Source: a bacterium
GTDB taxonomy: Bacteria; Babelota; Babeliae; Babelales; JAUPTZ01
Length of the DNA stretch: 29,784 nucleotides
NCBI GenBank assembly: GCA_037139275.1
Contig: JBAXGS010000001.1
Coordinates: forward strand, 1-29,784
Direction of reading: 5' to 3'
In this document: piece after piece, positions 4,701 to 22,752 of the stretch
Position numbering within the stretch: position 1 is the stretch's first letter
Layout of the letters: each line of letters opens with the position of its first letter
Notes under the pieces: generated by a model
Databases searched by the model: none
What the model was told of the DNA's origin: nothing
Seen by the model: the letters and a program-made list of their open reading frames with translations, nothing else
Program-made: the position numbers and the translations under genes

Positions 4701-7212
4701 CACACGACCACTCAGTAGTGACGATAAACAAGAGCTCTTTGATGTTGCAAGTGCAGCTATTTTAGAATTTATTCTTTTTGCTCAAAATGATGCGTTTACT
4801 GCATTAAATAATGATATGGATGAGCTCAGCAATACGAATAAAAATGATGACTTCCTGCCCTATAAAGCATTTATAAAAGAAGAAAATGATATTCTGCAAA
4901 ATATGAGCGCAGGGCTTGAAATACTTGGTCCGCCAATGCTTCAACGTTTTTTTGCTGAAATTCCGGTTACCGTTGGAGAACCAGACCTTGACCCAGGACT
5001 TGCCACACTTGAAGAACTGATTGCTGCAGAAGCACAAGCAAAGCTTGATACGATGCATGCACTCATACAAAGAATTGTTGATGGCATCTCAACACCATTT
5101 TCTGCACTCACTGGAATGGCAATGCTCTTTTTAATAGATAGCAACTTTGATAACATTCGTCTGACTATAAATGACTATCTTACTGCAAAAGGATACACTA
5201 CCTTTCACCTCGTGTCAGAACCAGGCTCCACACTCAGAAATCATACCTATCTGTACACATTATTTACCCAGATACTCAAAGACCTTGAGCCTCTTCTTAA
5301 AACAACCGGTAATACATTTGCTCCCCCGTTTCAAGGAGATCCAAACGCACCGCAACTCAGCAGTGAGACGATCTATGTAGCTCAAACTGTTACTCCCACA
5401 AATACCACAACAGTCAGTGATCAACAAAAAAATCTAGATAATGGATCTTCTGATTATCCCAAAAATACCTCCGTACTCACGCCGACCAATGCAGCAACAA
5501 GAGCTACCATCAGAGAAATTCTTGCTTCAGATGTGCCCAAAACAGAAGTCTACTCTCGCATCTACATTAAAGATGCACTCATTGCGCTCGGAAATGGTAA
5601 CTTCACGAAAGAATCCCGTCGCGCACTCTCGCTCTTTGGTTCAGCAGATATAACACCTGAAGGGAACTGTATGATAACTCTCAATAGCGACATTCTTATT
5701 TCTGGACCAAACTTCCTTCATCCCTCAAATAGCTTTGGGTATGATAAAAATAATGCCACACGTTGTATTCCTGCAATTCCTGCATCACGTCGCGGTCACC
5801 ATGAAATTATTTTTTATTCACCAGTCGAACGCACCATTACTATTGCAAGCGAAACTGAATTAGATCTTACTGCGTTTGCGCAGGGGCTGGTTCTCAATGG
5901 TCAACGTATTACTTTTGCGGGCAAAGTCAAACTTGTATTTGAGCCAAATACGCGCTTGCGGCTTCCGTATACCCCGCAAAATAAGCGTGATTATTGTTTA
6001 ACGGTAGCATTTAAAGATGAGGCAGAACTTATCTTTGAAGGTATTGAAAATTATGATATCAGTTCGTGGACTGATGCATTAAATGGACCTGATTTAGTTC
6101 GATCAAAAATACTAGGCTGCGGCGTTTTAGAATTTTCAGGACATGCACAAGCAAAAATTTTAAAATCTGCACTGGTAGGCATTGAAGCTGACTATACCTC
6201 AAATATCACAAACATTGAGATAAAACTTGCTGACAGCAGTAAGTGGCTTATGGGCACCAGTACCATTTCTGGTGGTGGTCTTCAAGTGGGTAATATTCAA
6301 GATGGTGGGAGTAATAACCTCGATGAAGATATGTATCCCAATAATACTACGCACCCTCGGTATGGCTCCCTCGATGATCCATTTATACCTCGCACAACAC
6401 AGATCGACTTCTCGCTTACCCTTGCAGGAACCAATGCACAATTTTATATAGGACGAGGAGCCTTTGTTGGATTTGGCGCAGGAACTATTAATAAAGAAGG
6501 AATAATAAATGGCACAGAAACAACCACTCCATGGTCACTCCAGTCGCTGTACAACATGGGCGGCATTTCGTTCAACTTTTTAAACGGTACCTTCTGGCAT
6601 CAAAATATTGCAGAAGGATCAAGCAGTGATGCCTCACTGCTTGCAATTGGACCACAAAAAGGAAGATCGCTGTATAAACTTATTATGAACAAAAAGAAGA
6701 ACACTCTTATTCGAGGAGGTGGAAACGTTATGTTTATTCGCACCAATTATACACTCCCTCAAGAGATCTCCGTATTACATACTATCCAGCCCTTGATCGG
6801 AGATATGACCGATAGCGGCAAATATTCACTGCTTGCGCCGCCACCAGTTATTATGCTGAGACAAGAAATAGATGCTGATCACCCTGGTTACAAAAAATAT
6901 GGTAATGCTTTTATTCTTGAAACACCGACCACCTATCTTCTGAGTGGTCCGTCTGATGATTTTTTCCGTGCAATCACCCTTCAAAACCTATCAAATAATG
7001 GAAAATATGCGCTTGCATACAACCAAGAAAGCCAAAATAAGTTTACGTTGATTGATAGCGCAGGAATAGTTCTCACAAGCCCAATAAAACTGCGACAAGT
7101 TAAAGACCAAAGTAATAAGCGCATAACACCTAAAAACGTTACCTCAGAAGGCATTGTACGCTCCAATACAACCACTGCGCGCCCGCTGCGGCTGATTAAA
7201 CCAAAAGCGTAG
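1753..7212 (+). CDS. 1819-aa exported multidomain protein: Trp-rich repeats, putative Methyltransf_FA-like beta domain, helical region, C-terminal beta-rich region
   Basis: Long ORF with AAGGA RBS and signal peptide MNRTLQNCLLFFSATFISSALS-A. Recurrent W-x-[YF]-[ND]-x-x-T-x-x-W motifs. Function unknown. Confidence 0.9.
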   Translation: MNRTLQNCLLFFSATFISSALSATISWELTDTGALGTDSTKTYAYTPASPINYEAFSGPLKCADTETSIEWIATIHATPYRDLGEFFWKAGDVEWSYNPLTREWGVINNTLVWFHSVDFDATNITHTKHTWSHNAKHDTWIFKPLDPLGEFSHYWQHTINRKSVGDTDYPFFSEKWGYNKSTNEWTNVTRNQVVQDNNWQFDQETMRWTRVGTNEVWECNPLLETFTLIGDGVARNRWRHLDKNIWLEEAEGIEWEYLQPEGDDQLSMWQSRVVKRNWIFDTETQQWITNTPGQPSRYFPPLVPPVFATQVEHIVDLYNELSAQVISPTVSSECILNDGIHTARFYSDNSFDLSIPALSASIGGGPHYGYTENFETSFGEKWHKESSLSPLDDTSYTNVSNTVTVRYKVAHNSSVGYWYITGTYFRWHYNPDTNLWLDTILGIEFTFDLDTLTWTNTATGTEWQYLFNHDLNAWVWRNTTAEEDWVLEEQTAATKGGGGTPKFPVWKNTSNNRRWYPFGRYDTELQTPIFLETTDELDFTNQHPWEYNPTDHLWYAADNLSGEGLELFPCVPGNLAGCIETLKKIGLADTTSTSPLSTALGIINRNTEAQSELADLATSLDTSIANATSPIALYDALLPQLPATKHFAEKNLLLWNEYTRLTNPLGETGSYFEPTIDVGFTSWNPTTWKFDTAGKGAITFELARPIGCKIGFAPEPTNDNSATYTLKIYLEQSSYASQEFPDDSDFTAYYTVYIVTLFKGETQLSEQGRPFIIIGKHYPDAQKIWCTYDNGHIKVGVGDPLTAVLKENGIALLFDYQLDDGDTPSSINYFSFADSYSWVGSVDINTFMTYHNTGPIHSIQVHNYDLFSTQVDAVDIANNCQDYVNLAPLELQWLHLKTELNALTTYGLTYRDKSELSEKLFGDLLARRTIAPPSGLSTRSQTYTDYVFSGLLFGTETLKVFTDYATQKLYRYDDSITALLTASTRPLSSDDKQELFDVASAAILEFILFAQNDAFTALNNDMDELSNTNKNDDFLPYKAFIKEENDILQNMSAGLEILGPPMLQRFFAEIPVTVGEPDLDPGLATLEELIAAEAQAKLDTMHALIQRIVDGISTPFSALTGMAMLFLIDSNFDNIRLTINDYLTAKGYTTFHLVSEPGSTLRNHTYLYTLFTQILKDLEPLLKTTGNTFAPPFQGDPNAPQLSSETIYVAQTVTPTNTTTVSDQQKNLDNGSSDYPKNTSVLTPTNAATRATIREILASDVPKTEVYSRIYIKDALIALGNGNFTKESRRALSLFGSADITPEGNCMITLNSDILISGPNFLHPSNSFGYDKNNATRCIPAIPASRRGHHEIIFYSPVERTITIASETELDLTAFAQGLVLNGQRITFAGKVKLVFEPNTRLRLPYTPQNKRDYCLTVAFKDEAELIFEGIENYDISSWTDALNGPDLVRSKILGCGVLEFSGHAQAKILKSALVGIEADYTSNITNIEIKLADSSKWLMGTSTISGGGLQVGNIQDGGSNNLDEDMYPNNTTHPRYGSLDDPFIPRTTQIDFSLTLAGTNAQFYIGRGAFVGFGAGTINKEGIINGTETTTPWSLQSLYNMGGISFNFLNGTFWHQNIAEGSSSDASLLAIGPQKGRSLYKLIMNKKKNTLIRGGGNVMFIRTNYTLPQEISVLHTIQPLIGDMTDSGKYSLLAPPPVIMLRQEIDADHPGYKKYGNAFILETPTTYLLSGPSDDFFRAITLQNLSNNGKYALAYNQESQNKFTLIDSAGIVLTSPIKLRQVKDQSNKRITPKNVTSEGIVRSNTTTARPLRLIKPKA

Positions 7213-7408
7213 GCCGTGTCCGAGAATTATATACAAAGCTGAACTTCTCTGGACCTCACCGTCTTTACTGACTGCCCGCCAAAGCTATTACGCGAAGGCC
7301 GGGAGGCCGCGATGACGCATGGTGCACGTTCGTATCTTTTGACAGTTAAAGGCTTAGATTCGCGTAATTTCGGACTATTATTTGATATTGATTTCTCAGA
7401 CACGGCCT
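7212..7408. mobile_element. MITE-like element (~197 bp) with terminal inverted repeats and a probable TA target duplication
   Basis: AGGCCGTGTCCGAGAA (7211-7226) versus the reverse complement of 7393-7408, AGGCCGTGTCTGAGAA, gives 15/16 identity. TA lies at 7210-7211 and 7409-7410. No transposase ORF inside. Confidence 0.55.
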
Positions 7409-7470
7409 TAATCGAAATCAAGATTTTAAACTCATTCAAGACTCTATTTCATGCACATGCTGCAGATATC

Positions 7471-7513
7471 AAAAAGAATATGGTGCATATGCTAAAAAAC
7501 ATATACACCATAT
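7471..7513 (-). terminator. Intrinsic terminator of the 8775->7540 bicistron
   Basis: Minus-strand hairpin ATATGGTGTATATG / CATATGCACCATAT (14 bp including one G.U that forms only on the minus strand), 8-nt loop, followed by TCTTTTT. It lies 26 nt after the stop of 7540..7716. Confidence 0.7.
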
Positions 7514-7539
7514 AAACACCAAAGGGAAATCAATAAAGA

Positions 7540-7716
7540 TTACGCGGCATTATTTATTTCGTCGGAAACTTCAGGTTCTGCTTGGATGGCAGAAATATTA
7601 AGATTACTTGTATTCACAACCTTACCTGAAATATCCCCACCAAAACTAACTACGGGCGTAAAAACACTAATCAACAAGGCTTGTAATAGAAAATTGCTGT
7701 ATTTCTTGATAGTCAT
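7540..7716 (-). CDS. 58-aa secreted microprotein (paralogue of 22495..22677); not in the ORF track
   Basis: Hand translation: MTIKKYSNFLLQALLISVFTPVVSFG-GDISGKVVNTSNLNISAIQAEPEVSDEINNAA*. ATG is 3 nt after the upstream TAG, and an AAGGA SD lies in the last codons of the upstream gene. Signal-peptide-like N-terminus; mature part resembles 22495..22677. Confidence 0.75.
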   Translation of the reverse strand: MTIKKYSNFLLQALLISVFTPVVSFGGDISGKVVNTSNLNISAIQAEPEVSDEINNAA

Positions 7717-7719
7717 ATA

Positions 7720-8775
7720 CTATTCCTTTCTCTCTGGTACCTTAAATTTTCTGCTAATCGGATCACGTTCAGCTTCAGGCAGCGGCCATTTAAATTCCAA
7801 AACAATATCAGGATTATTCTTCATCTCCTCAAGAACAGTAGCAGAAAGTGTAGGGAGCATAAAATAATTTACTATAACCTCCCGCGGGTCAGTTGAAGAA
7901 TGACTAAGTGTTTTTACTGGTTGCCGCCCCGGCCATATATGCTCATACCACCCTTGTCGCACCATCTGAATAACATCTGGAACCACTCGTAGTTGATTTT
8001 TGCGCCGTATTAGAAAAGCTGCCCCATTACTAAGGCCATCATCTTCGTTACTACTAAGTACCATGCGTTTAGGGTATGCCTGGCTGCAGCGATACACCAA
8101 ATGAGGTTCCCATTCAGTCGGAATCCAAGCACTTGAAACTATATAGCACTGTGCAATATTTTGACTCACACAGGTAAGCAGCTCTTCTTTGCTTGATACT
8201 TGCTGCACAACAGGAACAAAGCCTATGCGAATCAAATCAGCCACCGCTCCCTCAACATCTAATTTAAGTAATGCTGCTGCTTCGTTCCCCCACGCCGCAA
8301 GATCATATGGAATCAATATCTTAGAAGACACCGGCAACAAAAACCTCAGCGGCTCCTGAAGCCCTTCATGCAAAAAAGGCTGTGGTGTTATATCAAGACC
8401 TCGAACCCCAGACATCCAGCCTCCGGGCCGCTCAAATGAATCAATAATTCCAAGGTCAAGTGCCTCATTATTCGGCATACCAAAAAATGTAGTAGGAAAT
8501 GGACTAATCTCTTTATACACATCACGGAGTGCCAGTGTTATATCGCGGCCAATAGCCACTACCCAATTACACTGCGCCTTACTAAGCGCCTCTTTTACTG
8601 TTTCTCGTTTTTCATCATGAAGCAACATCCATTGCGGTTGATATGCTTCTCCCCCACGCAAATCATTAATGCTTTGAAACGCTTTCACAAGCTCCATTGC
8701 ATATTTTTTATGACTCACACGTGTTTCATAGCCCATGATATACACGTGACATATAGGCGGTTTAGATACAGACAT
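7720..8775 (-). CDS. ABC transporter substrate-binding-like protein (ABC_sub_bind/PF04392-like, type I periplasmic-binding fold) lacking a signal peptide
   Basis: Motifs VVAIGRD...PTTFFGMPN...LGIIDSFERPGGWMSGV resemble the family signature GLV.s..rPGgNiTGv. No hydrophobic N-terminus and no adjacent permease or ATPase. AAAGGA RBS present. Confidence 0.7.
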   Translation of the reverse strand: MSVSKPPICHVYIMGYETRVSHKKYAMELVKAFQSINDLRGGEAYQPQWMLLHDEKRETVKEALSKAQCNWVVAIGRDITLALRDVYKEISPFPTTFFGMPNNEALDLGIIDSFERPGGWMSGVRGLDITPQPFLHEGLQEPLRFLLPVSSKILIPYDLAAWGNEAAALLKLDVEGAVADLIRIGFVPVVQQVSSKEELLTCVSQNIAQCYIVSSAWIPTEWEPHLVYRCSQAYPKRMVLSSNEDDGLSNGAAFLIRRKNQLRVVPDVIQMVRQGWYEHIWPGRQPVKTLSHSSTDPREVIVNYFMLPTLSATVLEEMKNNPDIVLEFKWPLPEAERDPISRKFKVPERKE

Positions 8776-8868
8776 TTGGTATCCTTTTTTAATAATGAAA
8801 CTCTGGCTTCCCCCAAACCTTTATTACTTTCAACAACGCATACGAATAACATCGCGCACGCAGTTGAA

Positions 8869-8896
8869 AGTCTATGCCGATCTTACTAAAAGTCAA
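8869..8896 (-). promoter_or_regulatory. Candidate sigma70 promoter for 7720..8775
   Basis: Minus strand TTGACT (8896-8891) - 16 nt - TAGACT (8874-8869). Confidence 0.45.
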
Positions 8897-8998
8897 ATTT
8901 TGAAATGTGAAAACAAAAAAACTCATTATTTAATGCTACTTTATTGCTCAATACACTGAGCTAGAGCATCACTTAAAAAGATACGCTGCGCGCAAAAA

Positions 8999-9838
8999 CT
9001 AGGTACCCCCGAGCGACACACAGCCGAAGGCATCAATCACCACCATCTCTTCTGCTGCAAGCCCCTCAAGAATTGTAGTGAATGTTACCTCACCAATTTC
9101 TCGTTTAATATCATGGATAACAATTTCACGTAAAACATCTACTGATCGCGGGAGAGACACAAGGGTAAGCGCCCGCAAAATACTGCCCCTTACTTGTCTA
9201 TCTGAGCCTTCAAAGCGAGACTGGGTTGTATGATGCTTACTTTTTCGACTTGGATTACCATGTTCTTTTTTAAGCATCACCCCATAATCCATTAATGCAT
9301 AATACCACTGACGAGGATTTTCCTGATCAACGGTTGATCTAATTAATGGCTCTAGATCACGGTCATGCACCTGGGTAGAATCCTTAAAAAAGAACTCTAT
9401 GTAGACTGATCGAATATTAGTCTCAATAAAAACAGTTGGTTCATTATATGCAAAAGCAAGAATGGATGATGCGGTTGCTTTACCAATTCCCGGAAGCGCA
9501 TTGAGTGCTGCCAGGTCACGCGGAATGATTCCCTGATGAGTACGAACAATCTCTTGTGCCGCTTGGTGTAAAAATTTTGCACGCCGATTATAACCCAGAC
9601 CCTGCCATACGGTTAAAACATCTGCAAGGGATGCTGCGGCGAGTGCATTAATAGTTGGAAAGGCGTTAATAAACTGCTCAAATTTTACCACAACCCGCTG
9701 GGTCTGCGTTTGCTGTAACATCACTTCCGATATAAAGACATAATAAGGATTTTCAACATCACGCCATGCAAATACACGCTTATGCTGCCTGTAGTATGTC
9801 TTAATCGTTTCAACAAAGGTAATAAGCTTCTTATCCAT
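8999..9838 (-). CDS. mutY: A/G-specific adenine glycosylase, MutY-like HhH-GPD; no 4Fe-4S motif and no MutT-like C-terminal domain
   Basis: SEVMLQQTQ, WQGLGYNRRAKFLH and HhH LPGIGKATA are present. Start moved to ATG 9838 (MDKKLITF), preceded by GTGGTGG; the ORF-track start at 9904 is probably too long. Confidence 0.85.
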   Translation of the reverse strand: MDKKLITFVETIKTYYRQHKRVFAWRDVENPYYVFISEVMLQQTQTQRVVVKFEQFINAFPTINALAAASLADVLTVWQGLGYNRRAKFLHQAAQEIVRTHQGIIPRDLAALNALPGIGKATASSILAFAYNEPTVFIETNIRSVYIEFFFKDSTQVHDRDLEPLIRSTVDQENPRQWYYALMDYGVMLKKEHGNPSRKSKHHTTQSRFEGSDRQVRGSILRALTLVSLPRSVDVLREIVIHDIKREIGEVTFTTILEGLAAEEMVVIDAFGCVSLGGT

Positions 9839-9930
9839 ATACCACCACATAATAAGGAGATGCAAAGCACAATACTTTTCGATATACTTCTTTGCAGGTA
9901 TCACTATTTTTCGTTTTTCAGGAATGTTTT

Positions 9931-10857
9931 ATGAACGGCATTATAATTCTTTACTACAAATATGTAACCATCGATAATCCCACAGAAATAATGGCGTGGA
10001 TTCGGCTTCTCTGCACAAAACTCAATCTCAAGGGACGGATTCTTATTAGCACTGAAGGCATTAATGGCACACTTGGTGGTATGCCCCAAGAAATTGAAGA
10101 ATTCAAGAAAATATTTTTAACCCACCCGCTATTTGGTGATACCGACATCAAAGAAAGTCCTGGCTCGGCCAATGATTTCCCGCGGCTTATGGTCAAAGTA
10201 AAAAAAGAAATTGTCGGCATGGGAATTGCCCCCGAAGCATTAACTGTCAAAGATACCGGGACGCATCTGACTCCAGAAGAAACTCACGCACTGATTGCAA
10301 ACAATAAAGATCTGATTATTCTTGATACACGCAACGATTACGAATCACGTATTGGCAAATTTGTAGAAGCGGTGATTCCACCACTCAAGACATTCCGCGA
10401 TTTTCCTCAATACATTGAAGACAATTTAGAATCATTTAAAGACAAAGAAGTACTTATGTACTGCACTGGCGGCGTCCGCTGCGAGCGAGCAACCGCACTT
10501 CTTAATGTAAAAAAAGTAGCAAAACAAGTGTACCAAATAAATGGTGGCATCTGCCGCTATGTAGAAAAATACCCTGACGGATTTTTCCGTGGCAAAAATT
10601 ATGTGTTTGATGATCGCATTGCGCTTCCCGTCAATAACGATATTTTGACGGATTGTGATGTGTGCCATAACCCCGCAGACACGTACACCAACTGTATGAA
10701 TACACAGTGTAATGTGCAATTTGTTGCGTGCATGGACTGCCGTGCACAATTTGATTACACCTGCTCGCAAGAATGCCATGATGCTATTATTGCAGGAACG
10801 GTAAAGCCACGCAAAAATAAAGTAGGTGTTATTGCATCTATGCACCACTCACAGTAA
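9931..10857 (+). CDS. trhO: Rhodanese-related tRNA U34 hydroxylase TrhO (YceA/UPF0176)
   Basis: LYYKY...LKGRILISTEGINGT, LDTRNDYE, YCTGGVRCE and a Cys-rich C-terminal domain are present. Start at ATG 9931 after CAGGAA. Confidence 0.9.
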   Translation: MNGIIILYYKYVTIDNPTEIMAWIRLLCTKLNLKGRILISTEGINGTLGGMPQEIEEFKKIFLTHPLFGDTDIKESPGSANDFPRLMVKVKKEIVGMGIAPEALTVKDTGTHLTPEETHALIANNKDLIILDTRNDYESRIGKFVEAVIPPLKTFRDFPQYIEDNLESFKDKEVLMYCTGGVRCERATALLNVKKVAKQVYQINGGICRYVEKYPDGFFRGKNYVFDDRIALPVNNDILTDCDVCHNPADTYTNCMNTQCNVQFVACMDCRAQFDYTCSQECHDAIIAGTVKPRKNKVGVIASMHHSQ

Positions 10858-10895
10858 TTTAAAACATGTCCCCGCAGCATTAAGAGGGACTTATT

Positions 10896-11699
10896 ATGAT
10901 AACAAAACATATTATTGCACTTATGTGCATCACAATCATCGGCATACAATATGCACAGCCTAGTTCGCCACCTTATAGCGTTGAAATACGCACAGAGGAG
11001 GAGTCCATTGCTCAAAACCAAAAAGCAAAAGAATTGCTCGCATTTATTTTCATAGACATTGACCCTGCTGCAAGATTAACCGAGCCGGAAATCTATGCTG
11101 CGGTCTGGAGGCACATTGATTCTATACTTGGCACCTGGTACCATCAGATTACCAAGACGAAACCAGATAGCACGCTTACACAGCGCAATGAACAAGTAAT
11201 GTTTTTTATTATCAACGCACTTATATTGCATGCACACGATACAGTAGAACAAGCAATGGCAAGGGGCACAGATGTTGATTGTAATAATATTGATATCAAA
11301 TACTACAAAGCAACAATAAACTTATTTCTCCGTGTTATGTATCAAACAATTATGATTAAAAAAAGAACAAGGCATAGAAGACATTACCGAGTCAGAGCCG
11401 AAGCATACAAGCACCACATATGCCGCTTAGAATGGATACTTTGCAACATGATCGATGATCTGCGCCCATCAGATTACGATACAACTGAAACCAGTAGTGA
11501 GAGCACTGATGAGTGCGGTAAAATAAGGCCTGTTTCTTTTGGATTTGAATCACAACTGCAGCGTTTGATAAAAAATTTTCCCGAATACGATTTTAGAACA
11601 ATACTTTCTAAATATTATAACGATGGCATGGATAGTGAAGATCCTGTGCTTAAAGCAATTCCAGTATTTCCTGATGCAGTACCTTTTACCATGGCATAA
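10896..11699 (+). CDS. Hypothetical exported, largely helical protein (267 aa)
   Basis: ORF with AGAGGGA RBS and signal-peptide-like N-terminus (MITKHIIALMCITIIGIQYA-QP). No recognised family. Confidence 0.75.
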   Translation: MITKHIIALMCITIIGIQYAQPSSPPYSVEIRTEEESIAQNQKAKELLAFIFIDIDPAARLTEPEIYAAVWRHIDSILGTWYHQITKTKPDSTLTQRNEQVMFFIINALILHAHDTVEQAMARGTDVDCNNIDIKYYKATINLFLRVMYQTIMIKKRTRHRRHYRVRAEAYKHHICRLEWILCNMIDDLRPSDYDTTETSSESTDECGKIRPVSFGFESQLQRLIKNFPEYDFRTILSKYYNDGMDSEDPVLKAIPVFPDAVPFTMA

Positions 11700-11781
11700 G
11701 ATGGCTGCTAAGGCCGCGTCCTTTGTTGAACTAAATCATGCGGCGGCCCTGCTGCTAAACCGCAACCGTGGTATTTTTAAA

Positions 11782-12627
11782 TTATCTACTGACTACCGAT
11801 TGTGATAAATCCTCTTGTGCCTTGGCAGCCGCAATCGCCCTTGCAAATTCTTTATTCAATTGCTCCACGCCACCTTTTTTGCGCATCAAACGGGTAATAA
11901 GTGGTTTTGCTCCCAGACTCATTATAGGCAACCATACTAACGATATAAAATTTCTCATGTTCCGCATATTTCCCGTAGTATCAGGCTTCATCTGACCCTG
12001 CTCATATGCATAATATGCATCATAGCCAGCCTTAAGTATTTTTTGAATAGCAAAAAAATAGAGCATAAATACAATAAAAGACCCTATTGTTTGAGTACAG
12101 AGACCAACAACCTCAGCTTTCTTACGATGACGACGCACGCTTTCCCAACTTACCACACCCATTCTCTTTTTAAACTCAGGGTCTTGCAGCAATGCGTACA
12201 ATACATCTGCATGTTTTGCATGTAGCTCGTGCATTTTTTTGCGTTTAAGGGCACCAGGAATACTAGCAGCGTATGCAACCATTGCAGGTGTCGCTAAAAT
12301 ACCCACTTGCTGGGCAAATGCTTTATCATCATTAGAACTAGCAGTAAAAGCACCATTTGTAGCAATGGCCCATATTACACTTGTTACTGCGCCACCTGTT
12401 GCCGCCAGCGGAATTACTTTTCCTTCTGCCGCTGCAGCAGCTAGTTGTTTCTTTTTAAACTCTTCAGCCGATTTAGCGGCAAGTGACCGTCCCTCAAGAT
12501 TACGGCTTACCGTATGCATCCAGCTTGGTGTAGCAAATACGGCGCACTCAACTACAGAAGAGGTCCAGAACGCCATTACAGCACAGTAAATAATTCTTGC
12601 ACATATTTGCAGCTTTCTCATCTTCAT
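11782..12627 (-). CDS. Hypothetical membrane protein (signal peptide plus two hydrophobic hairpins), tandem paralogue B
   Basis: Shares three near-identical blocks with 12624..13448. ATGA start/stop overlap at 12624-12627. Confidence 0.85.
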   Translation of the reverse strand: MKMRKLQICARIIYCAVMAFWTSSVVECAVFATPSWMHTVSRNLEGRSLAAKSAEEFKKKQLAAAAAEGKVIPLAATGGAVTSVIWAIATNGAFTASSNDDKAFAQQVGILATPAMVAYAASIPGALKRKKMHELHAKHADVLYALLQDPEFKKRMGVVSWESVRRHRKKAEVVGLCTQTIGSFIVFMLYFFAIQKILKAGYDAYYAYEQGQMKPDTTGNMRNMRNFISLVWLPIMSLGAKPLITRLMRKKGGVEQLNKEFARAIAAAKAQEDLSQSVVSR

Positions 12628-13448
12628 AAACTAACCATGCATACTGGCTCGGCATCTACTGCCACAACAGATTCATTCTTGTGCTTTTTTTTCGCCTCAG
12701 CCGCTGCAATTGCTTTTGCAAATTCTTTATTCAATTGCTCCACGCCACCTTTTTTACGGATTAAACGTGCAATAAGTGGCTTTGCTCCCAGGCTAATAAG
12801 AAGCGGCAGTAGCGCACAACCACTGATTGTCAGAATACCATAAAGATGTCCATCTCCTGTATGATGACCCTTATGCTCAGCATTACTAGCTAAAACCACC
12901 ATTACGAAAAAGGCTAAAACAGAGCCAATAGTCTGTACTGAGAGTCCAATTGCCTCAGCTTTCTTACGGCGGCGTCGAACACTTTCCCAACTCTCCACAC
13001 CCATTTTCTTTTTAAACTCAGAGTTTTGCAATAACGCATACAGTACATCTGCATGTTTTGCATGTAGCTCATGCATTTTTTTGCGCTTAAGCGCACCGGG
13101 AATATTTGCAGCATATACAGCAGCAGAAGCAACCATTCCTCCACCTATAATAAGTGGTTCCAACAAACGGTATTTATGGCTCGTATTAGAAGTATAGACA
13201 TTAATACCTTCCTTGACACCCATCCCAGTCATTGCCACTGCACCTGTTGCTGCCAGCGGAACTACTTTTCCTTCTGCAACCGCAGCTGCTAATTGTTTCT
13301 TTTTAAAATCTTCAGCTGATGTGGCAGTAAGTGACCGCCCCTCAAGATTACGGCTTGCCGTGTGCATCCAGCTTGGTGTAGCAAATACGGCGCACTGTAC
13401 TGATGGCACTACAGATAACAAAAACATCACATACATATAAAATTTCAT
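12624..13448 (-). CDS. Hypothetical membrane protein (signal peptide plus two hydrophobic hairpins), tandem paralogue A
   Basis: GAGGG RBS. Blocks CAVFATPSWMHT.SRNLEGRSL, IPGALKRKKMHELHAKHADVLYALLQ and SLGAKPLI.RL.RKKGGVEQLNKEFA are shared with paralogue B. Confidence 0.85.
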   Translation of the reverse strand: MKFYMYVMFLLSVVPSVQCAVFATPSWMHTASRNLEGRSLTATSAEDFKKKQLAAAVAEGKVVPLAATGAVAMTGMGVKEGINVYTSNTSHKYRLLEPLIIGGGMVASAAVYAANIPGALKRKKMHELHAKHADVLYALLQNSEFKKKMGVESWESVRRRRKKAEAIGLSVQTIGSVLAFFVMVVLASNAEHKGHHTGDGHLYGILTISGCALLPLLISLGAKPLIARLIRKKGGVEQLNKEFAKAIAAAEAKKKHKNESVVAVDAEPVCMVSL

Positions 13449-13617
13449 ACACCCTCATGGATTTTCATAAAAATTACGTGTCGCAAAAAACCCCAATCAC
13501 GCAGACGACTAGCAGCTGATTAGCAATGTTTATACTACTATATTACCAAATATACTAAAGCAAATACTATATTTTAAAACTTTAACTATTTATAAGAAAA
13601 GCCCTTCTTACCTCTCT

Positions 13618-13654
13618 AAAAAAAGCGAGAGGAAATATATATTTCCTCTCGCTT
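13618..13654 (-). terminator. Intrinsic terminator of nusA-infB
   Basis: Perfect 32-bp palindrome AAGCGAGAGGAAATATATATTTCCTCTCGCTT (13623-13654). The A7 run at 13618-13624 gives a U7 tail on the minus strand, 44 nt after the infB stop. Confidence 0.85.
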
Positions 13655-13698
13655 CATAAGTCATATATCTAAAAATACCGATTCAGTCACGGCGCAGA

Positions 13699-15993
13699 CT
13701 ATTCTTCTTCTTGTTGATGAGTAAAAATTGTTATGCGATCGCCTACAGCCCAGCCATGAAAGGTATCAGTAACAAATCCACAATCAAGCCCTGCGTAAAT
13801 CTCTTTCATATCTTTACGATCACGCTGTAATGTGGTTACTTTGCCGCTACCAATCTCTTCACGAGCACGAATACACACAACCTTGTCACCAACCTTCAAT
13901 ATGCCTTCTTTAATCATACAACCGGCAATGACCTTGTGGCCTTTGATTGGGAATATCTTGAGCACTTCTGCCTTACCTGCTTCAACCAGATGAACAATCT
14001 TGCAACGCTCTGTTTTAATAAGCGCTTCAACTTGCTCAAACAGATGATAAATAATCTCATGAAGGACAATTTCAACACGTTTTTCTTTAGCCATCAATTG
14101 TGCATTTTTATCCGCACGAACATGAAGTCCAAATAAACGCGCGCCAGTATCTGCAGCTCGAATCACATCATTTTCAGTAATCGGTCCTACTTCGCATGAC
14201 AGCAGCTCAACACGGATCGATTTATTCTTAGCATGTTGCTCCATCTTGTTTACTGCATCAATAATCGCTTGGCATGACCCTTGCATATCTGCTTTAAACA
14301 TAAGCCGAATGCCCGGCATGTCTGCCGCTTGCGTTTGAAGCGATGCGCTCGCCATAGAAATTGGCTTACGTGTATGCGTTTCTGCTCGCGCATCTTGATA
14401 TTGAGCAGCAGTCACCACTTCCAAATAATCGCCAAGCCCGTGCGTTTCATCAAATCCAATAACTTGTACCGGAATCGATGGTCCCGCTTCATCAATACAT
14501 TCACTATAACTATCAATCAGCAACCGAACTTTACCGGTTGTTTGTCCACAAATAAAATGATCACCTCTTCGAAGTGTTCCTTCTCTGCAGATCACCGTAA
14601 CGGCAAGGCCGTGTCCTTTTAATTGACGTGTTTCAAGAACAAATGCTCGTGCTGGCACAACCTTTGATGTTTTAAGATCAAGCATATCCGCCACAAGTCC
14701 AATCATATCAAGCAAATCGCTTACACCTTGACCTGTTTTTGCAGAAATTTGCACGCACACTGTTTCACCACCCCATTCTTCTGGCGTCAAGCCATGCTGG
14801 GCAAGTTGTGTGCGTAGTGTTTCCAATTGAGATTCTGAAGAAAGACGATCAATTTTATTAATCGCCACAATAATAGGCACTTCCGCTTGCTGAGCAAGCT
14901 TAATAGCCTCAACAGTTTGCGGCTTAATACCGTCATTAACTGCCACAATAATAATTGCAATATCAGTAACACGAGTTCCTCGCGTACGCATCGCAGAAAA
15001 CGCTTCGTGACCAGGTGTATCCAAAAAGATAGCACTGCGACCACCGGTTTTCACTTCATAAGCGCTCAGATGCTGCGTAATGCCACCTTTTTCTTTTGCA
15101 ACCACATTAGTCTTGCGTAAATAATCAAGCAGCGTAGTTTTACCATGATCCACGTGCCCCATCACTACCACAACAGGAAGCCGCTGTTCATACGTTTTAT
15201 CAGTAGGTGCTTGCGCTTTTTTATCAGCAGCCATTAACAGCGAAGTAGCTTCACCCTTCACCGGAGTGTTTACTTCTAATTCAATGGTAAATACTCCACA
15301 GAGCATTTTCATATCATCAACAGAAAGTGTCGCATGGATATTTTTTGCAATCCCATTTTTCAGCAAAACAAAAATAACTTCACTCACCGCTTTTCTCAGA
15401 AGCACAGCAGCATCAACAAGCAGTAAATCTCCTGCTATAGCCACTTTAGCAACAAGTGGTGGCGTAATGAGTGTTTCACGATTTGCGCGTGTTTGCTGTT
15501 GAACTTGTACTGACTCAACTTCTTCGTCATGCAAATCTTTTGTTTTTGCGGTACGTTTTTTAGATTGCGGAGTCTTTTTAGTCGATGCTTTTTTTTCAAG
15601 TAATGTTGTTGGTGCCGGGACCACATCACGTGATATTCCTGCTCCAGCTGGCCGCTTCCACGGCCCTTTCTTGTCATCACCAGCAGCATCAGGACGCGCA
15701 TCACCACTTCCCATTGGACGCGGAGTCCGCGCATAAGGCGCTGCAGGCCGATCGCTCGCAGTACTACCTGCTGGACGAGGTCCACGCGGCGGCGCTCCTT
15801 CTGCTCCCGCAGGGCGAGGCCCACGAGGACGAGCATAATTTCTATTGCCCCCAATAGTACGATTCAATAATGCTTCCATGTCCGCATTTAATTCAGACAT
15901 ATGATCAGTAACTTGATGTCCATTTTGCTTCAGGGTTTCAACAACATCCTTGCTCGATAGATTCTGCGCTTTGGCATACTCAATAATACGCAT
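13699..15993 (-). CDS. infB: Translation initiation factor IF-2
   Basis: IF2_N-like start, G1 MGHVDHGKTTLL, DTPGHEAF, NKID, C-terminal GLDCG. AAGGAG RBS lies in the end of nusA. Confidence 0.98.
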   Translation of the reverse strand: MRIIEYAKAQNLSSKDVVETLKQNGHQVTDHMSELNADMEALLNRTIGGNRNYARPRGPRPAGAEGAPPRGPRPAGSTASDRPAAPYARTPRPMGSGDARPDAAGDDKKGPWKRPAGAGISRDVVPAPTTLLEKKASTKKTPQSKKRTAKTKDLHDEEVESVQVQQQTRANRETLITPPLVAKVAIAGDLLLVDAAVLLRKAVSEVIFVLLKNGIAKNIHATLSVDDMKMLCGVFTIELEVNTPVKGEATSLLMAADKKAQAPTDKTYEQRLPVVVVMGHVDHGKTTLLDYLRKTNVVAKEKGGITQHLSAYEVKTGGRSAIFLDTPGHEAFSAMRTRGTRVTDIAIIIVAVNDGIKPQTVEAIKLAQQAEVPIIVAINKIDRLSSESQLETLRTQLAQHGLTPEEWGGETVCVQISAKTGQGVSDLLDMIGLVADMLDLKTSKVVPARAFVLETRQLKGHGLAVTVICREGTLRRGDHFICGQTTGKVRLLIDSYSECIDEAGPSIPVQVIGFDETHGLGDYLEVVTAAQYQDARAETHTRKPISMASASLQTQAADMPGIRLMFKADMQGSCQAIIDAVNKMEQHAKNKSIRVELLSCEVGPITENDVIRAADTGARLFGLHVRADKNAQLMAKEKRVEIVLHEIIYHLFEQVEALIKTERCKIVHLVEAGKAEVLKIFPIKGHKVIAGCMIKEGILKVGDKVVCIRAREEIGSGKVTTLQRDRKDMKEIYAGLDCGFVTDTFHGWAVGDRITIFTHQQEEE

Positions 15994-16002
15994 ACTGGGC
16001 GT

Positions 16003-17112
16003 TTACTCCTTTAACTGTTCAGCATCGCTATCAATGACAGCAGCGCTCTCTTTTTCTTGTACAACACCAAAACTCTCTGTTTCGGTATTTTTCTGCGACG
16101 TATCCTCTTGCAATTGCACATGCAAACCGGTCAAACGAGAAACTAAGGCGATGTTTTGTCCTTGTTTGCCAATTGCAAAAGAGCGTTGATCTTGAGCAAG
16201 CCATACTGTTGCACGACCATGAACTTCATCAACAAAAACTCGATCGATTTCTGCTGGCTTTAATGCGGTCGCAACTAATTGCTCGAGATCTTCGGTGTAT
16301 TCAATAAGATCGACTTTTTCTTGGCCAAGTTCTTTCAGGATGGGACGAATGCGGACACCGCCAACACCCACGCATGTTCCCACTGGATCAATGTCGGTGC
16401 TGTTTGATGCAACAACCACTTTTGATTTATAACCAGGAACGCGTACCACTTGCTTTACTTCAACAACTTTTTCAAAAATTTCTGGGATTTCAAGTTCAAG
16501 CAACTTCTGCACAAACAAACTTGAGGCGCGATCAAGCACCAACTGATGGTCGCCGCGTGCAGCAACAAGCACTTCTTTCAGCAATGCTCTCACAGGATAA
16601 CCAATACGCAAGTTCTCTTCAGGGATAGTACATGACTTTGGAAGAAACGCCATCGTTTCGCCCATTTTAACCACAAAGCCAGCACGCTCACGCTTATGAA
16701 CTCTACCGTTAACAATAGTGCCTTCTTTATCTTTAAATTCATCATATACCGCTTGCTGCTCAAGCGCGCGAATGCCGTGAGCAATAAATTGACGAGCTGC
16801 AGACATTTCAATGCGCCCGATTGTTTGGTCAAACGTCTCAAACACAGTACCACCAAGAGTTGCCGCATCATCAATCATTTTTGCTTTGCGGAGCGAAATC
16901 TCTGTAGCGCTTGTTGGACTACCTGCAACCACATGGCGCTGGACAAGAACTTCAACTACATTTGTTTTTGTGTTGTAGCGAGTCTGAAATACTAATTCAG
17001 GAAATTTTTTATGATAAGCCATGGCAACGCCATCTCGAATTACCGCAATGACTTTTTCTCGGTCAAGGCTCCGCTCATCAATTAATGATTCAATGACTTC
17101 AGCAAGATTCAC
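16003..17112 (-). CDS. nusA: Transcription termination/antitermination factor NusA
   Basis: IGRIEMSAARQ, S1 and KH motifs (RVPGYKSKVVV, DPVGTCVGVGGVRI, AIGKQGQNIALVSRLTG). Probable GTG start at 17112 with GGAG 8 nt upstream; the ORF-track start at 17160 is probably too long. Confidence 0.97.
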   Translation of the reverse strand: MNLAEVIESLIDERSLDREKVIAVIRDGVAMAYHKKFPELVFQTRYNTKTNVVEVLVQRHVVAGSPTSATEISLRKAKMIDDAATLGGTVFETFDQTIGRIEMSAARQFIAHGIRALEQQAVYDEFKDKEGTIVNGRVHKRERAGFVVKMGETMAFLPKSCTIPEENLRIGYPVRALLKEVLVAARGDHQLVLDRASSLFVQKLLELEIPEIFEKVVEVKQVVRVPGYKSKVVVASNSTDIDPVGTCVGVGGVRIRPILKELGQEKVDLIEYTEDLEQLVATALKPAEIDRVFVDEVHGRATVWLAQDQRSFAIGKQGQNIALVSRLTGLHVQLQEDTSQKNTETESFGVVQEKESAAVIDSDAEQLKE

Positions 17113-17202
17113 GATATAGACTCCAATATGCTTAAAAGAAAAATCCAGGGCAGCAAGCAAAACCCTGGAGGCTTGATACTATTGTACTTTGGTATGAGTA
17201 TC

Positions 17203-17230
17203 ATTCTACCTGTTTTGCTGAGAAAGTGAA
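17203..17230 (-). promoter_or_regulatory. Candidate sigma70 promoter for nusA-infB, directed away from the origin
   Basis: Minus strand TTCACT (17230-17225) - 16 nt - TAGAAT (17208-17203). Confidence 0.4.
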
Positions 17231-17261
17231 GTAACCAAGATATTTAGTTTTTTAGCCAGCC

Positions 17262-17570
17262 TTCTTATTACTTATTTATATATGATTATAGTATTAATAA
17301 TAATAAGGGAAGTCAAAATTGTGGATAAGTCGGCTCTCAGGGGCAGAAAAGCCTTTTGCAGTAAATATTTCTCGCCAGGCTCAAAATGTGGATAACTTGT
17401 GGATTCGTGTGGATAACTTGTGGATAACTTGTTCAGGCCGCTCGAATAAAGGCTCTGGGAGCTAGTTTTGAATCGGTGATGCCTCGATTTGCCTTGCTGG
17501 AGGCTTAATCCAAGCGCAATCAACAATGAATCCACAGCGAATCCACAAGTTATCCACAGAGTTATCCACA
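17262..17570. other. oriC: Probable chromosomal replication origin (oriC)
   Basis: Perfect TGTGGATAA at 17320, 17387, 17408 and 17419, variant TGTGGATTC at 17398. Opposite orientation: GAATCCACA at 17528 and 17539, perfect TTATCCACA at 17550 and 17562. AT-rich tract at about 17262-17306 with TAG-TAT-TAA-TAA-TAA-TAA trios (17289-17306) then GGG. Spot checks suggest the + strand turns G-rich to the right. Confidence 0.9.
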
Positions 17571-17635
17571 ATGGAATTCAGTTTGTTGTGATATTACAAC
17601 CTCGACAAAGTTCTCATTTCGATTTGTATTGTTCC

Positions 17636-18259
17636 TTATGGATTTGCTGCCAAAAATGCTTTGAGTCGCATAATATCATTTTTGACGGTGTTTATGGCTT
17701 GTCTATTTCTCAGCAAATAGGATGGATGGTAGGTAGGCATTATGGCAAAGTATTCTGTTTGTGTAATTTGACCGCGCAATTGAGAAATAGGGGGTGAGGA
17801 GGGGAAAAAGAGTGTTGTTGCGGTTGCACCCAGAGTACAAATGGCGCGTGGTTTAAGGTATGCAATTTCTTTAAGCAAAATGAGCGAGCTACAGGTGTTT
17901 CGTTCTTCTGCTGTAGGTGGTCTATTGAGTGGCGGGCGGCATTTTGTGGTATTTGATATGTACACATGTGCAGGATCACAGCCGATTTCTGTAAGAATAG
18001 TCCGCAGCAATCGGCCTGAGCGGCCGATAAAAGGAGTTCCTTGTTCGTCTTCATCTTTGCCGGGAGCTTCTCCAATAAAAAAGAGTTGGGCGTTTTCTGG
18101 GCCGACTCCAAAAACAACCTGTGTGCGTCCTTGTATGGCAAGGGGGCATTGGGTGCAGGCAGTGTATTGCTTCTTAAGACTTGCAAGCGATTGTGGGCTG
18201 TTTTGGGCGTAGAGATCTTTGAGTTGCGTTGCAAGTGCCGGGTTAAGCCTCAGCGTCAT
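17636..18259 (-). CDS. udg: Uracil-DNA glycosylase family 4 (4Fe-4S type)
   Basis: CTQCPL, FIGEAPGKDEDEQGTPFIGRSG, KCRPPLNRPP, C, PTYHPSYLLR. Confidence 0.95.
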   Translation of the reverse strand: MTLRLNPALATQLKDLYAQNSPQSLASLKKQYTACTQCPLAIQGRTQVVFGVGPENAQLFFIGEAPGKDEDEQGTPFIGRSGRLLRTILTEIGCDPAHVYISNTTKCRPPLNRPPTAEERNTCSSLILLKEIAYLKPRAICTLGATATTLFFPSSPPISQLRGQITQTEYFAIMPTYHPSYLLRNRQAINTVKNDIMRLKAFLAANP

Positions 18260-18298
18260 AGACTATCCTTTCTGTCTGTGTGATGCAGGATAGTCTAT
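18258..18298 (-). promoter_or_regulatory. 12-bp hairpin occluding the udg SD and start codon
   Basis: ATAGACTATCCT (18258-18269) and AGGATAGTCTAT (18287-18298) form a perfect inverted repeat. On the mRNA the 3' arm is AGGAUAGUCUAU(G), i.e. SD through the AU of AUG. Confidence 0.55.
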
Positions 18299-18308
18299 CA
18301 AAGGCGTC

Positions 18309-19763
18309 TTAAAAGATGCAGGAGGAGCTTGGCGATCTTTTTGCTCCGCATTCTCTTACAAAATCAAACCAATGTGTTTTTTTCGCAAAAGCGGTTTGAG
18401 CATATGACCAATGGAGCGAGCGACGAGGGAATGTGATGGACATTCCGCGTGCGCGAATTGGGTTACCCATAAAGGCAATTCCTGCTGTATAGAGCGGCAC
18501 AACTTTGTAGAGTAACTCAAGAGAGGTGAGGCAGAGTGTTATCGCTTCTTGTACGGTTGCGGCTGAGCCAGGATAATCATAGCGAAAGTTTTTTTGGTTA
18601 AGAAGTTGGCGTAAGTTGTTTTGAAGATTAAGCAGGAAAAAATGGAGATCGATATATTCATTGTCATAAAATTCGCAGAACAAGTTTTTTTTCGTTCGTA
18701 CGTCAGTTATGACCGGTCCAATAATTCGTTTTTCAGGGCATCGTAGTAATGCTTGAAGGGTAAGTGCGAGTGAGTCGATGCTTTGTGTGAGTAGTTCAAA
18801 ATATGTTGTACTTTGTCCTTCTGGTGTAGAGGAGAGATCGTACATTGCAAGTGTATAATCAACACTTGAGAGGTATTCCTCTTTATATGCTGCCACAATA
18901 TCATTCCCCAGCTCACTTGCACAGCGAACTTGGGTGGTAATTTTTGCAAATGCTTTGGCGTAGTTCCAACCAGATGCTAATTCTACTTCTTCTGATGCAA
19001 CAATATAATCAACTACATGATTTACTTGTGCTGCAATTTCTACCTGCCCGCCATGACAGATATCAAGACCAAGCATTGCTATCTTTTGATTGTTGAGCGC
19101 AGTGCGTGAAATAGTTTCAAGTGCATAGGTGAGATCTTGGTTTGAAAGGTAGTAATTATAGGTATCATTAAACGCCATGCCGCGCGTAGGATGCTTTCCA
19201 AAAAGTTCTTGATCATGGCACAGGATGCTGCGCCACTTGAGTGGATCCAAGCATCCTGTGCCATGATCCCATATTACTATGCATTGTTTTTTTGCTTTAA
19301 ATTGAGCCATTCCTGTTTGCAGAAAATCAATAAAGTTTTCTACTGCTCCGCTATTGTAGAGTCGCGGATTTTTGCTGCGCTCGAATGCAGTCGCATCAGA
19401 GGCTCGCCAGTATGGGGATATGCCTCCATTTTTAATTCGTGCGCGTATGACATCGCGTGTGCCAAATTTATCAACTTGAACAATGATATTACACAGAGAT
19501 CCAAAACTGACACTCATCAGCTGTGCGAGGTTTTGATCAATCGCAAAAAATAGGTCATTTTGGCCAGCCATATACACAAAAATATTCCATTCTTTTTCAT
19601 CACATATTTCGTACTCTCGCGTAGAGGTTTGTGTGGGTGTTTGAATGCGTGAAAAAGGAAGCGTCTGTTTTTTAACGAATGTTGTTTTACAATCCAGTGA
19701 TGGTATCAATACCAACAGTATGCTGAGAAAACATCCAAATATCGGTAGTGCCTGCATATACAT
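18309..19763 (-). CDS. Clostripain-family (C11) cysteine peptidase, exported
   Basis: WNIFVYMAGQNDL, catalytic-His motif IWDHGTG, catalytic-Cys motif LGLDICH, DYIVASEE. Hydrophobic N-terminus. Confidence 0.88.
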   Translation of the reverse strand: MYMQALPIFGCFLSILLVLIPSLDCKTTFVKKQTLPFSRIQTPTQTSTREYEICDEKEWNIFVYMAGQNDLFFAIDQNLAQLMSVSFGSLCNIIVQVDKFGTRDVIRARIKNGGISPYWRASDATAFERSKNPRLYNSGAVENFIDFLQTGMAQFKAKKQCIVIWDHGTGCLDPLKWRSILCHDQELFGKHPTRGMAFNDTYNYYLSNQDLTYALETISRTALNNQKIAMLGLDICHGGQVEIAAQVNHVVDYIVASEEVELASGWNYAKAFAKITTQVRCASELGNDIVAAYKEEYLSSVDYTLAMYDLSSTPEGQSTTYFELLTQSIDSLALTLQALLRCPEKRIIGPVITDVRTKKNLFCEFYDNEYIDLHFFLLNLQNNLRQLLNQKNFRYDYPGSAATVQEAITLCLTSLELLYKVVPLYTAGIAFMGNPIRARGMSITFPRRSLHWSYAQTAFAKKTHWFDFVRECGAKRSPSSSCIF

Positions 19764-19810
19764 TAGTCCTTATATTGATACACAAAAGAAAGAGTGGTGT
19801 TTTGTATACC

Positions 19811-21085: not shown

Positions 21086-21180
21086 TCATTAGTGCATTCG
21101 ATTGCCTTATCTGTAGCGAGTATCCGTACAAAATAGCCTTATACAATCGATGCTTTTGCTGTATATCTCTGAACAAAAAA

Positions 21181-21208
21181 TTGATTTTTATATGAAGGGG
21201 TATATAAT
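21181..21208 (+). promoter_or_regulatory. Candidate sigma70 promoter for 21457..22491
   Basis: TTGATT (21181-21186) - 16 nt - TATAAT (21203-21208). Confidence 0.55.
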
Positions 21209-21456
21209 TCGACTGTGTATCGCAGTCTTCATGCACAAAAAACAGAGTAATAAAAGTTTAAGCATCTTCAAGTTTTTATTATTAATGGAAGGGCAGATGA
21301 TGCCAACCCCCCGACAAAAAAACGCCGTAAAAAAGAAGCAATTCAACCGATTTGCTTTCTGTGATAGGTGTGTTCTTCGTAATCCAAAATCAGTTCAAAT
21401 AATAGATCTTAATTATTGTACGAGTGCCCATTCTAAGATACAGGAAGGGTTTGTGT

Positions 21457-22491: not shown

Positions 22492-22494
22492 AAT

Positions 22495-22677
22495 ATGAGG
22501 AATACGGTGTTTAGTCTTCCAACATGTATATTATTTTTCTTCGGCTGTTTTTCTAGTTTTTGTTTAATGTATGCTAATAATGGCTATGTGGTTAAAAATA
22601 CTCAGCACAGTGTTAATACTGTTATTAGAAGCATTCAACCAGATATGGACGTAGACGTCGAAGAGCCATCGGCATAA
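22495..22677 (+). CDS. 60-aa secreted microprotein (paralogue of 7540..7716)
   Basis: MRNTVFSLPTCILFFFGCFSSFCLMYA-NNGYVVKNTQHSVNTVIRSIQPDMDVDVEEPSA*. ATG is 3 nt after the upstream TAA, and AAGGA lies in the last codons of the upstream gene. Confidence 0.75.
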   Translation: MRNTVFSLPTCILFFFGCFSSFCLMYANNGYVVKNTQHSVNTVIRSIQPDMDVDVEEPSA

Positions 22678-22697
22678 CAGCATATTAACTTTATGGT

Positions 22698-22729
22698 AAA
22701 AAGAGGTGTGTTTAAACACACCTCTTTTT
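22698..22729. terminator. Bidirectional intrinsic terminator between convergent genes
   Basis: Perfect 32-bp palindrome AAAAAGAGGTGTGTTTAAACACACCTCTTTTT with A-tract and T-tract flanks, between the stop at 22677 (+) and the stop at 22753 (-). Confidence 0.9.
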
Positions 22730-22752
22730 TGTGATTGTTTCCAAAGAACTTG

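Follow-up and report, generated by a model that had tools for sequence, protein, structure and literature searches.

Our analysis of a 29,784-nucleotide (nt) stretch of DNA from a bacterium of the lineage Babelota; Babeliae; Babelales; JAUPTZ01 (contig JBAXGS010000001.1 of assembly GCA_037139275.1; the whole stretch is hereafter called the window) revealed two copies of a two-gene module, in which the gene of a large PF04392-like (ABC_sub_bind) protein that carries no export signal is directly followed by a short open reading frame (ORF) for a microprotein with a predicted export signal. The large proteins are assigned here to class A of the PF04392 paralogues and the short gene is called the micro-ORF. 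This organisation is conserved, transcribed at least for copy 2, and undescribed in the literature that we searched. We read the class A/micro-ORF loci as a derived form within an expansion of the PF04392 family, in which the class A protein would be a cytoplasmic ligand binder and the microprotein its envelope-side partner, with a role in nutrition; the probability of this reading is put at roughly 45%. The features of the two loci, with protein lengths in amino acids (aa), are the following.

7720 to 8775, minus strand: copy 1 class A gene, 351 aa, leaderless, PF04392-like with a predicted type-I binding-protein fold, stop codon TAG
7723 to 7729, minus strand: copy 1 Shine-Dalgarno-like AAAGGAA within the final class A codons, 6 nt 5' of the micro-ORF ATG, from reading of the sequence
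7540 to 7716, minus strand: copy 1 micro-ORF, 58 aa, basic N-terminus and 17-residue hydrophobic segment
8869 to 8896, minus strand: copy 1 candidate sigma-70-like promoter, TTGACT-16-TAGACT, a consensus match only
7478 to 7513, minus strand: copy 1 terminator-like hairpin with T-run, 3' of the micro-ORF
21457 to 22491, plus strand: copy 2 class A gene, 344 aa from ATG, leaderless, stop codon TAA
22481 to 22487, plus strand: copy 2 Shine-Dalgarno-like AAAGGAA within the final class A codons, from reading of the sequence
22495 to 22677, plus strand: copy 2 micro-ORF, 60 aa, Sec-like N-terminus ending MYA|NN
21181 to 21208, plus strand: copy 2 candidate sigma-70-like promoter, TTGATT-16-TATAAT, about 250 nt 5' of the start codon, a consensus match only
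22698 to 22729, plus strand: copy 2 intrinsic-terminator-like hairpin of 14 pairs with T-run

The distance between the class A stop codon and the micro-ORF is 3 nt in both copies, and the duplicated layout described in the original prediction, with this gap and with the Shine-Dalgarno site encoded in the last codons of the large gene, was recovered at both loci. For copy 2, an alternative in-frame GTG at position 21424 would extend the class A protein to 355 aa. The promoters and terminators that had been proposed together with this layout are present as sites at both loci; the promoters fared less well on counting, as promoter-like matches around copies 1 and 2 are not more numerous than expected from shuffled sequence. 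Each of the two loci forms a co-transcribed, translationally coupled bicistron.

Expression was followed in a freshwater metagenome run that contains the locus and in two metatranscriptome runs of the same study that contain parts of it, the comparison extending over positions 7300-22800. RNA-library contigs at or near 100% identity were found only on infB, nusA and copy 2. One of them (21998-22165) is internal to the class A gene of copy 2, and another (22457-22612) crosses its stop codon, the intergenic gap and two thirds of the micro-ORF; none of the contigs from the two metatranscriptome runs falls on copy 1. Such contigs reveal neither strand nor transcript ends and might stem from DNA carry-over, but their restriction to two housekeeping genes and copy 2 argues for an RNA origin and for co-transcription of the copy 2 pair. 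The contigs on the housekeeping genes, which lie within 13792-17139 and cover parts of infB and nusA, suggest that the organism was transcriptionally active in the sampled freshwater community.

The class A proteins of copies 1 and 2 share 39% identity over their whole length. Copy 2 gave a weak PF04392 match (29.4 bits, curated cut-off 25.9), and no Pfam match was obtained with copy 1 alone. A profile of 30 family sequences matched 6HNI and 3LFT in the PDB at E 2e-19. The AlphaFold2 model of copy 1 (predicted local distance difference test, pLDDT, 88.7) retrieved 3LFT, 6HNI/6HNJ and 3LKV as the top five Foldseek matches with a probability of 1.0, followed in rank by PnrA/Bmp proteins, sugar-binding proteins and LacI cores, and a protein atlas search confirmed the PF04392 likeness and added nothing beyond it. 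By profile and by predicted structure, which agree with the ABC_sub_bind-like character first proposed for the large protein, class A is a two-lobed type-I binding-protein fold of the PF04392 kind. The model consists of a single binding-protein domain and a disordered C-terminal tail, which is strongly basic in class A; neither Pfam and NCBIfam nor the model revealed a helix-turn-helix (HTH), phosphatase or other output domain, as had been supposed from the sequence.

Neither large protein leaves room for a signal peptide: going upstream from the listed start, the open frame closes after 15 codons in copy 1 and after 6 codons in copy 2, and N-terminal hydropathy is low, with Kyte-Doolittle maxima of 0.3 and 1.1 versus at least 1.9 in membrane-anchored paralogues. 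Furthermore, the 18 independently called relatives inspected among the matches of the class A profile all begin directly at strand 1 and are as well leaderless. The sequences thus establish the signal-less state claimed for these proteins and, with it, their predicted location in the cytoplasm. The lack of transporter genes was likewise confirmed, no permease (BPD_transp_2) or ATP-binding cassette (ABC) ATPase gene flanking copy 1 or copy 2. The window's genome contains two PF02653 matches, one of which adjoins the single canonical PF04392 member (contig C26), the only member of the family in this genome that lies next to an ABC permease.

Across loci, the micro-ORF encodes a pre-protein of about 45-60 aa with a basic N-terminus, a hydrophobic segment of 15-21 residues and usually an AxA-like site. 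The predicted mature part comprises about 32 aa with a net charge of -4 in copy 1 and 33 aa with a net charge of -3 in copy 2. Hydropathy, N-terminal charge and AxA-like sites, the only features used for the export call, bear out the Sec-type N-terminus originally assigned to the small ORFs and suggest a Sec-targeted product, either a cleaved periplasmic peptide of 23-33 aa or a membrane-anchored stub; signal peptidase I is encoded in the window's genome.

The alignment claimed between the two mature peptides of the window was not confirmed, direct comparison of copies 1 and 2 being not significant against shuffles (z 0.74, p 0.24). Comparison of 11 predicted mature peptides showed that 21 of 55 pairs aligned better than shuffled versions (p<0.05), some of them strongly, such as copy 2 with C23 (z 10) and copy 2 with C19 (z 6.6). 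The peptides have position, length and the Sec-like N-terminus in common, but in sequence their only robust shared feature is a Gly-rich turn followed by the short strand-like motif G-x-[STV]-[VI]-[KR]-x-[ST]; copy 2, C23 and L014 have in addition ANxNGY and EPSA motifs in common. A scan of the window's genome with a hidden Markov model (HMM) of the micro-ORF recovered the five copies known there and no orphan copies away from class A genes.

Peptides that are small, predicted to be exported, fast-evolving and present in multiple diverged copies of a host-dependent bacterium, and that are found by this HMM only beside class A genes, might be secreted effectors or antimicrobial peptides directed at the host or at competitors, with class A acting as immunity protein, chaperone or maturation factor. 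We consider such a function highly improbable. Genes for maturation or export are not adjacent, the mature parts are mostly acidic and lack both Cys pairs and an amphipathic cationic character, and we know of no immunity protein or chaperone with a binding-protein fold.

Besides its two occurrences in the window, the pair was met at least ten times in other places. The window's own genome (G000) is a metagenome-assembled genome of 0.9 Mb in 169 contigs, 84% complete, in which the search yielded 13 paralogues. Five of the seven closest paralogues, window copies included, have an ORF of 54-60 aa behind them, at an offset of -4 to +10 nt; one of the remaining two ends with its contig and is unjudgeable and the other lacks an ORF, which gives five out of six assessable genes. 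After the hydrophobic segment, 28-33 aa remain in these five micro-ORFs, and this remainder is mostly acidic. In the sister species G002 the pair occurs at all three assessable loci, so that in both genomes the scan downstream of PF04392-like paralogues met the signal-like small ORFs that the original prediction had led us to expect. Among metagenome contigs, L038 carries a 43-aa ORF in the same position, L120 a 54-aa micro-ORF and L121 the beginning of one (both again after a 3-nt gap), and L122 and L125 carry micro-ORFs of 47 aa and 45 aa, while the case of L123 is ambiguous; small genes have also been called directly 3' of P0002, P0005 and P0012.

Genome-wide, an ORF of 40-70 aa with a basic, hydrophobic N-terminus lies downstream of only 9 among 499 long ORFs, and five of these nine are PF04392 paralogues; against this background, the class A/micro-ORF layout is more than chance. 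The micro-ORFs stay open at 43-60 codons, with Shine-Dalgarno sites, while the large proteins diverge to about 30% identity. The suggestion of an undescribed two-gene module with diverged copies is sustained by its recurrence in the genome, in the sister species and in metagenome contigs; no description of such a module was found in the literature on PF04392, on substrate-binding proteins of Dependentiae or on signal-less solute-binding proteins.

The module is embedded in an exceptional multiplication of its family. The six members of the window's family that were counted (G000-G005; about 0.8-1.2 Mb) have 41, 36, 32, 22, 17 and 11 PF04392 matches, the two highest values belonging to two near-complete relatives of 1.2 Mb. 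In 35 genomes from 20 other families of the order the count is 0-5, all of the genomes counted being about 0.8-1.9 Mb in size. This is a lineage-specific expansion, confined to the window's family among the families compared. A search of 1.84 billion representative proteins with the class A profile returned only 22 at E<=1e-30 and 124 at E<=1e-10.

Three classes of paralogues can be distinguished. Class A, to which both large genes of the window belong, comprises leaderless proteins of 319-355 aa; class C proteins (356-390 aa) are leaderless as well, more distant, and usually encoded just 5' of class A; class B proteins (345-375 aa) are anchored in the membrane by their N-terminus. Across 16 regions (L127-L140 among them) with 52 family ORFs from a sister genome that is 97% complete (G001), the typical operon has the order C-A-B, often with overlapping stop and start codons, and one operon reads A'-A-micro-B. 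The order in the window's genome, in G002 and in related contigs is C-A-micro, and in the window itself A-micro, so that in the window's clade the micro-ORF fills the slot that class B holds in sister operons. Furthermore, in the 659-aa database protein P0024 the counterparts of two neighbouring leaderless genes are naturally fused, from which we argue that the leaderless paralogues act together in one compartment. Short ORFs with signal-like N-termini (45-87 aa) were also noticed 3' of some class B paralogues (C30, from 4945 onward; L130; L132), and microprotein partners may perhaps not be restricted to class A genes.

The shared slot raises the question of descent. The micro-ORF has the position and coupling of a class B gene, and its basic stub and hydrophobic segment are followed by a strand-like motif at the place of class B strand 1, as would be expected if a class B gene had been deleted except for its 5' end (anchor plus first strand), leaving a remnant with little or no function. 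Nevertheless, when the micro-ORFs were scored with an HMM of 16 class B N-termini, the real sequences did no better than copies shuffled after the anchor, which lends no support to the micro-ORF as a truncated class B gene. The persistence of open frames and Shine-Dalgarno sites across divergence to about 30% identity, the coexistence of micro-ORF and class B in a single operon, and the RNA-library contig that covers the copy 2 micro-ORF speak equally against a relic, which we hold to be scarcely probable.

The membrane-tethered state of class B, as a version of the same fold, leads to a further possibility, namely that the hydrophobic segment of the microprotein tethers class A to the membrane or helps it across. 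Translational coupling, implying matched amounts of both products, and the basic, disordered tail of class A would suit such a task. However, the part of the microprotein predicted to remain in the cytoplasm measures only about 5-8 residues, and a twin-arginine motif for hitch-hiking export is lacking. The natural in-frame read-through of copy 2 was folded with the stop codon read as Q and an alignment of 30 rows; the binding-protein domain was confident, and the microprotein part (residues 349-406, pLDDT 26-39) was left unplaced and undocked. Nor is such a fusion conserved. The 3-nt in-frame gap is found at copy 1, copy 2, C23, L120, L121 and the P0002 locus, but the reading frames do not agree at C19 (+10), C115 (-4), L027 (-4), L038 (+26) and L122 (+38), L039 has three in-frame stops, and read-through as a conserved feature was rejected. 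An escort or anchor is, on this evidence, very unlikely.

The window's genome encodes at least five TLC nucleotide translocases, some of them in tandem (contigs C108, C127 and C25), on the basis of which we propose the lifestyle of an intracellular energy parasite; the gene content suggests a host-dependent, energy-parasitic organism, and the absence of an SBP_bac_5 match fits as well. This bears on the signalling role that the original prediction had placed first, in which, as in RRNPP systems, the microprotein would be exported, processed and re-imported to bind its cognate cytoplasmic receptor, diverged pairs providing specificity. A receptor-sized cytoplasmic protein does adjoin a small gene for an exported pro-peptide in many diverged pairs, and the peptides co-diverge with their large partners (e.g., copy 2, C23 and L014), but co-divergence is expected from linkage alone. 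Class A lacks an output domain of any of the kinds sought, and the Opp-type SBP_bac_5 binding protein was not found in the 84%-complete genome, which has three BPD_transp_1 matches. The organism appears to be obligately host-dependent, the conserved part of the peptide is an N-proximal Gly-rich strand motif instead of a C-terminal mature pheromone, and the same slot in sister operons is occupied by an anchored paralogue of 350 aa, which cannot be a pheromone. A complex prediction for copy 1 class A and its predicted mature peptide showed no binding (score 0.01), a run that gave no verdict and counts neither for nor against the reading. The missing output domain, the lack of an SBP_bac_5 match in an 84%-complete genome and the anchored paralogue in the sister slot turn against the claimed signalling; a pheromone role has no direct support, is not favoured by the genomic context, and appears quite unlikely to us.

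The explanation that we prefer, a cytoplasmic ligand binder with a partner in the envelope, would operate as follows. The PF04392 paralogues may work as multi-subunit sets divided between cytoplasm and envelope, in which cytoplasmic class A would be the binder of a small, amino-acid-like ligand. The microprotein, supplied in a fixed ratio, might be the minimal envelope-side partner of class A, and we read it in this way because sister genomes usually have class B after class A. Such a set could sense or handle host-derived nutrients in an energy-parasitic cell, as opposed to serving cell-cell signalling.

A number of observations weigh against this explanation. Its main weakness is that class A and the mature microprotein are predicted to reside in different compartments, which leaves their communication unexplained, and the prediction runs gave no contact between them (complex score 0.01; pLDDT of the microprotein in the read-through below 40). 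Descent from class B is unsupported by the HMM of class B N-termini, which does not separate micro-ORFs from shuffles, and one operon holds micro-ORF and class B together. The class A genes C68 and L124 have no micro-ORF. The mature parts are of mixed charge, mostly acidic but +4 in two of the 11 peptides, and the micro-ORF sequences are weakly conserved, a cross-species HMM built solely from other genomes giving E about 1-2, although three of the window genome's five micro-ORFs ranked among the best 13 of 9057 ORFs.

More far-reaching interpretations of the same material can be formulated. Leaderless paralogues and cognate exported micro-peptides might represent a new self- or host-directed class of peptide-receptor systems in which the periplasmic-binding-protein fold replaces the tetratricopeptide repeat (TPR) and which has diversified into many specific pairs, or, in a wider form, the C-A-B/micro operons might encode a new transporter-independent apparatus of binding-protein paralogues that spans the inner membrane. 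Taken jointly, we regard these two forms as unlikely.

Some observations concern the surroundings of the two copies. Between the stop codon of a giant gene and the copy 1 terminator, positions 7205-7415 constitute a repeated element, of which partial copies (84-96% identity) occur on eight further contigs, in two cases just 3' of other PF04392 paralogues (C69 and C68). Contigs of the DNA run break at its ends and their depth rises there, and the element is compatible with a miniature inverted-repeat transposable element (MITE). Copy 2 is preceded by a non-coding stretch of about 370 nt (21086-21456) with the promoter-like site 250 nt before the start. On the syntenic metagenome contig L038 (1866-2957) the order is ComEC, class C, class A, micro-ORF and secretin; the window lacks this class C gene, and a tblastn search for a remnant of it there found none. 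Within infB, one DNA contig at 15021-15137, with a depth of 170 versus about 8, skips 115 bases; it most likely represents the conserved GTPase region of another organism and not a variant of this genome.

Substrate-binding proteins are usually regarded as components of transporters or sensors that work outside the cytoplasm. Here, a nucleotide-parasitic bacterium of about 1 Mb maintains dozens of members of one binding-protein family, many of them leaderless and paired with an anchored paralogue or a tiny exported peptide. What sets this case apart is a PF04392 fold devoid of export signal and transporter context whose gene is coupled to that of a conserved microprotein, amid an exceptional expansion of paralogues. 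Knowledge of what the module does would reveal how a transport fold is put to new use in a reduced, host-dependent genome. It would furthermore add a set of conserved bacterial microproteins whose genetic partner is defined and which are tractable by heterologous expression though the organism is uncultured.

Several known systems resemble the module in part. L-Trp, L-Tyr and L-Phe are the ligands of the three solved PF04392 proteins (PMC6816091; PMC10443332). These proteins, CD0873 of C. difficile (6HNI/6HNJ), SP1069/TrpX of streptococci (3LFT) and VC_1101 of V. cholerae (3LKV), are alike to class A in fold and sequence family. As exported lipoproteins or in the periplasm, they supply a neighbouring ABC permease, whereas class A is leaderless, has no adjacent transporter, exists in multiple paralogues and is coupled to a micro-ORF or an anchored paralogue. 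In the RRNPP pairs (Rap-Phr, PlcR-PapR, AimR-AimP), as here, the gene of a cytoplasmic protein precedes a short one that encodes an exported pro-peptide, and there are multiple diverged pairs that look cognate. Their receptors, however, are TPR proteins with HTH or phosphatase output and Opp-dependent import, in contrast to the type-I binding-protein fold of class A.

In the AmiC-AmiR system of Pseudomonas aeruginosa, a leaderless type-I binding-protein fold serves as a cytoplasmic ligand sensor for an adjacent, separately encoded partner, and class A shares with AmiC this leaderless fold. AmiR is a soluble ANTAR antiterminator of about 200 aa, whereas the partner of class A is a protein of about 55 aa with an export signal or an anchored paralogue. 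Finally, the multicopy Bmp/PnrA proteins of spirochaetes (6YAG and 4IIL, among the Foldseek matches) differ in being exported lipoproteins throughout, without leaderless/anchored pairing or micro-ORF, and resemble the class A proteins in their related fold, their clusters of paralogues and their occurrence in small, host-dependent genomes.

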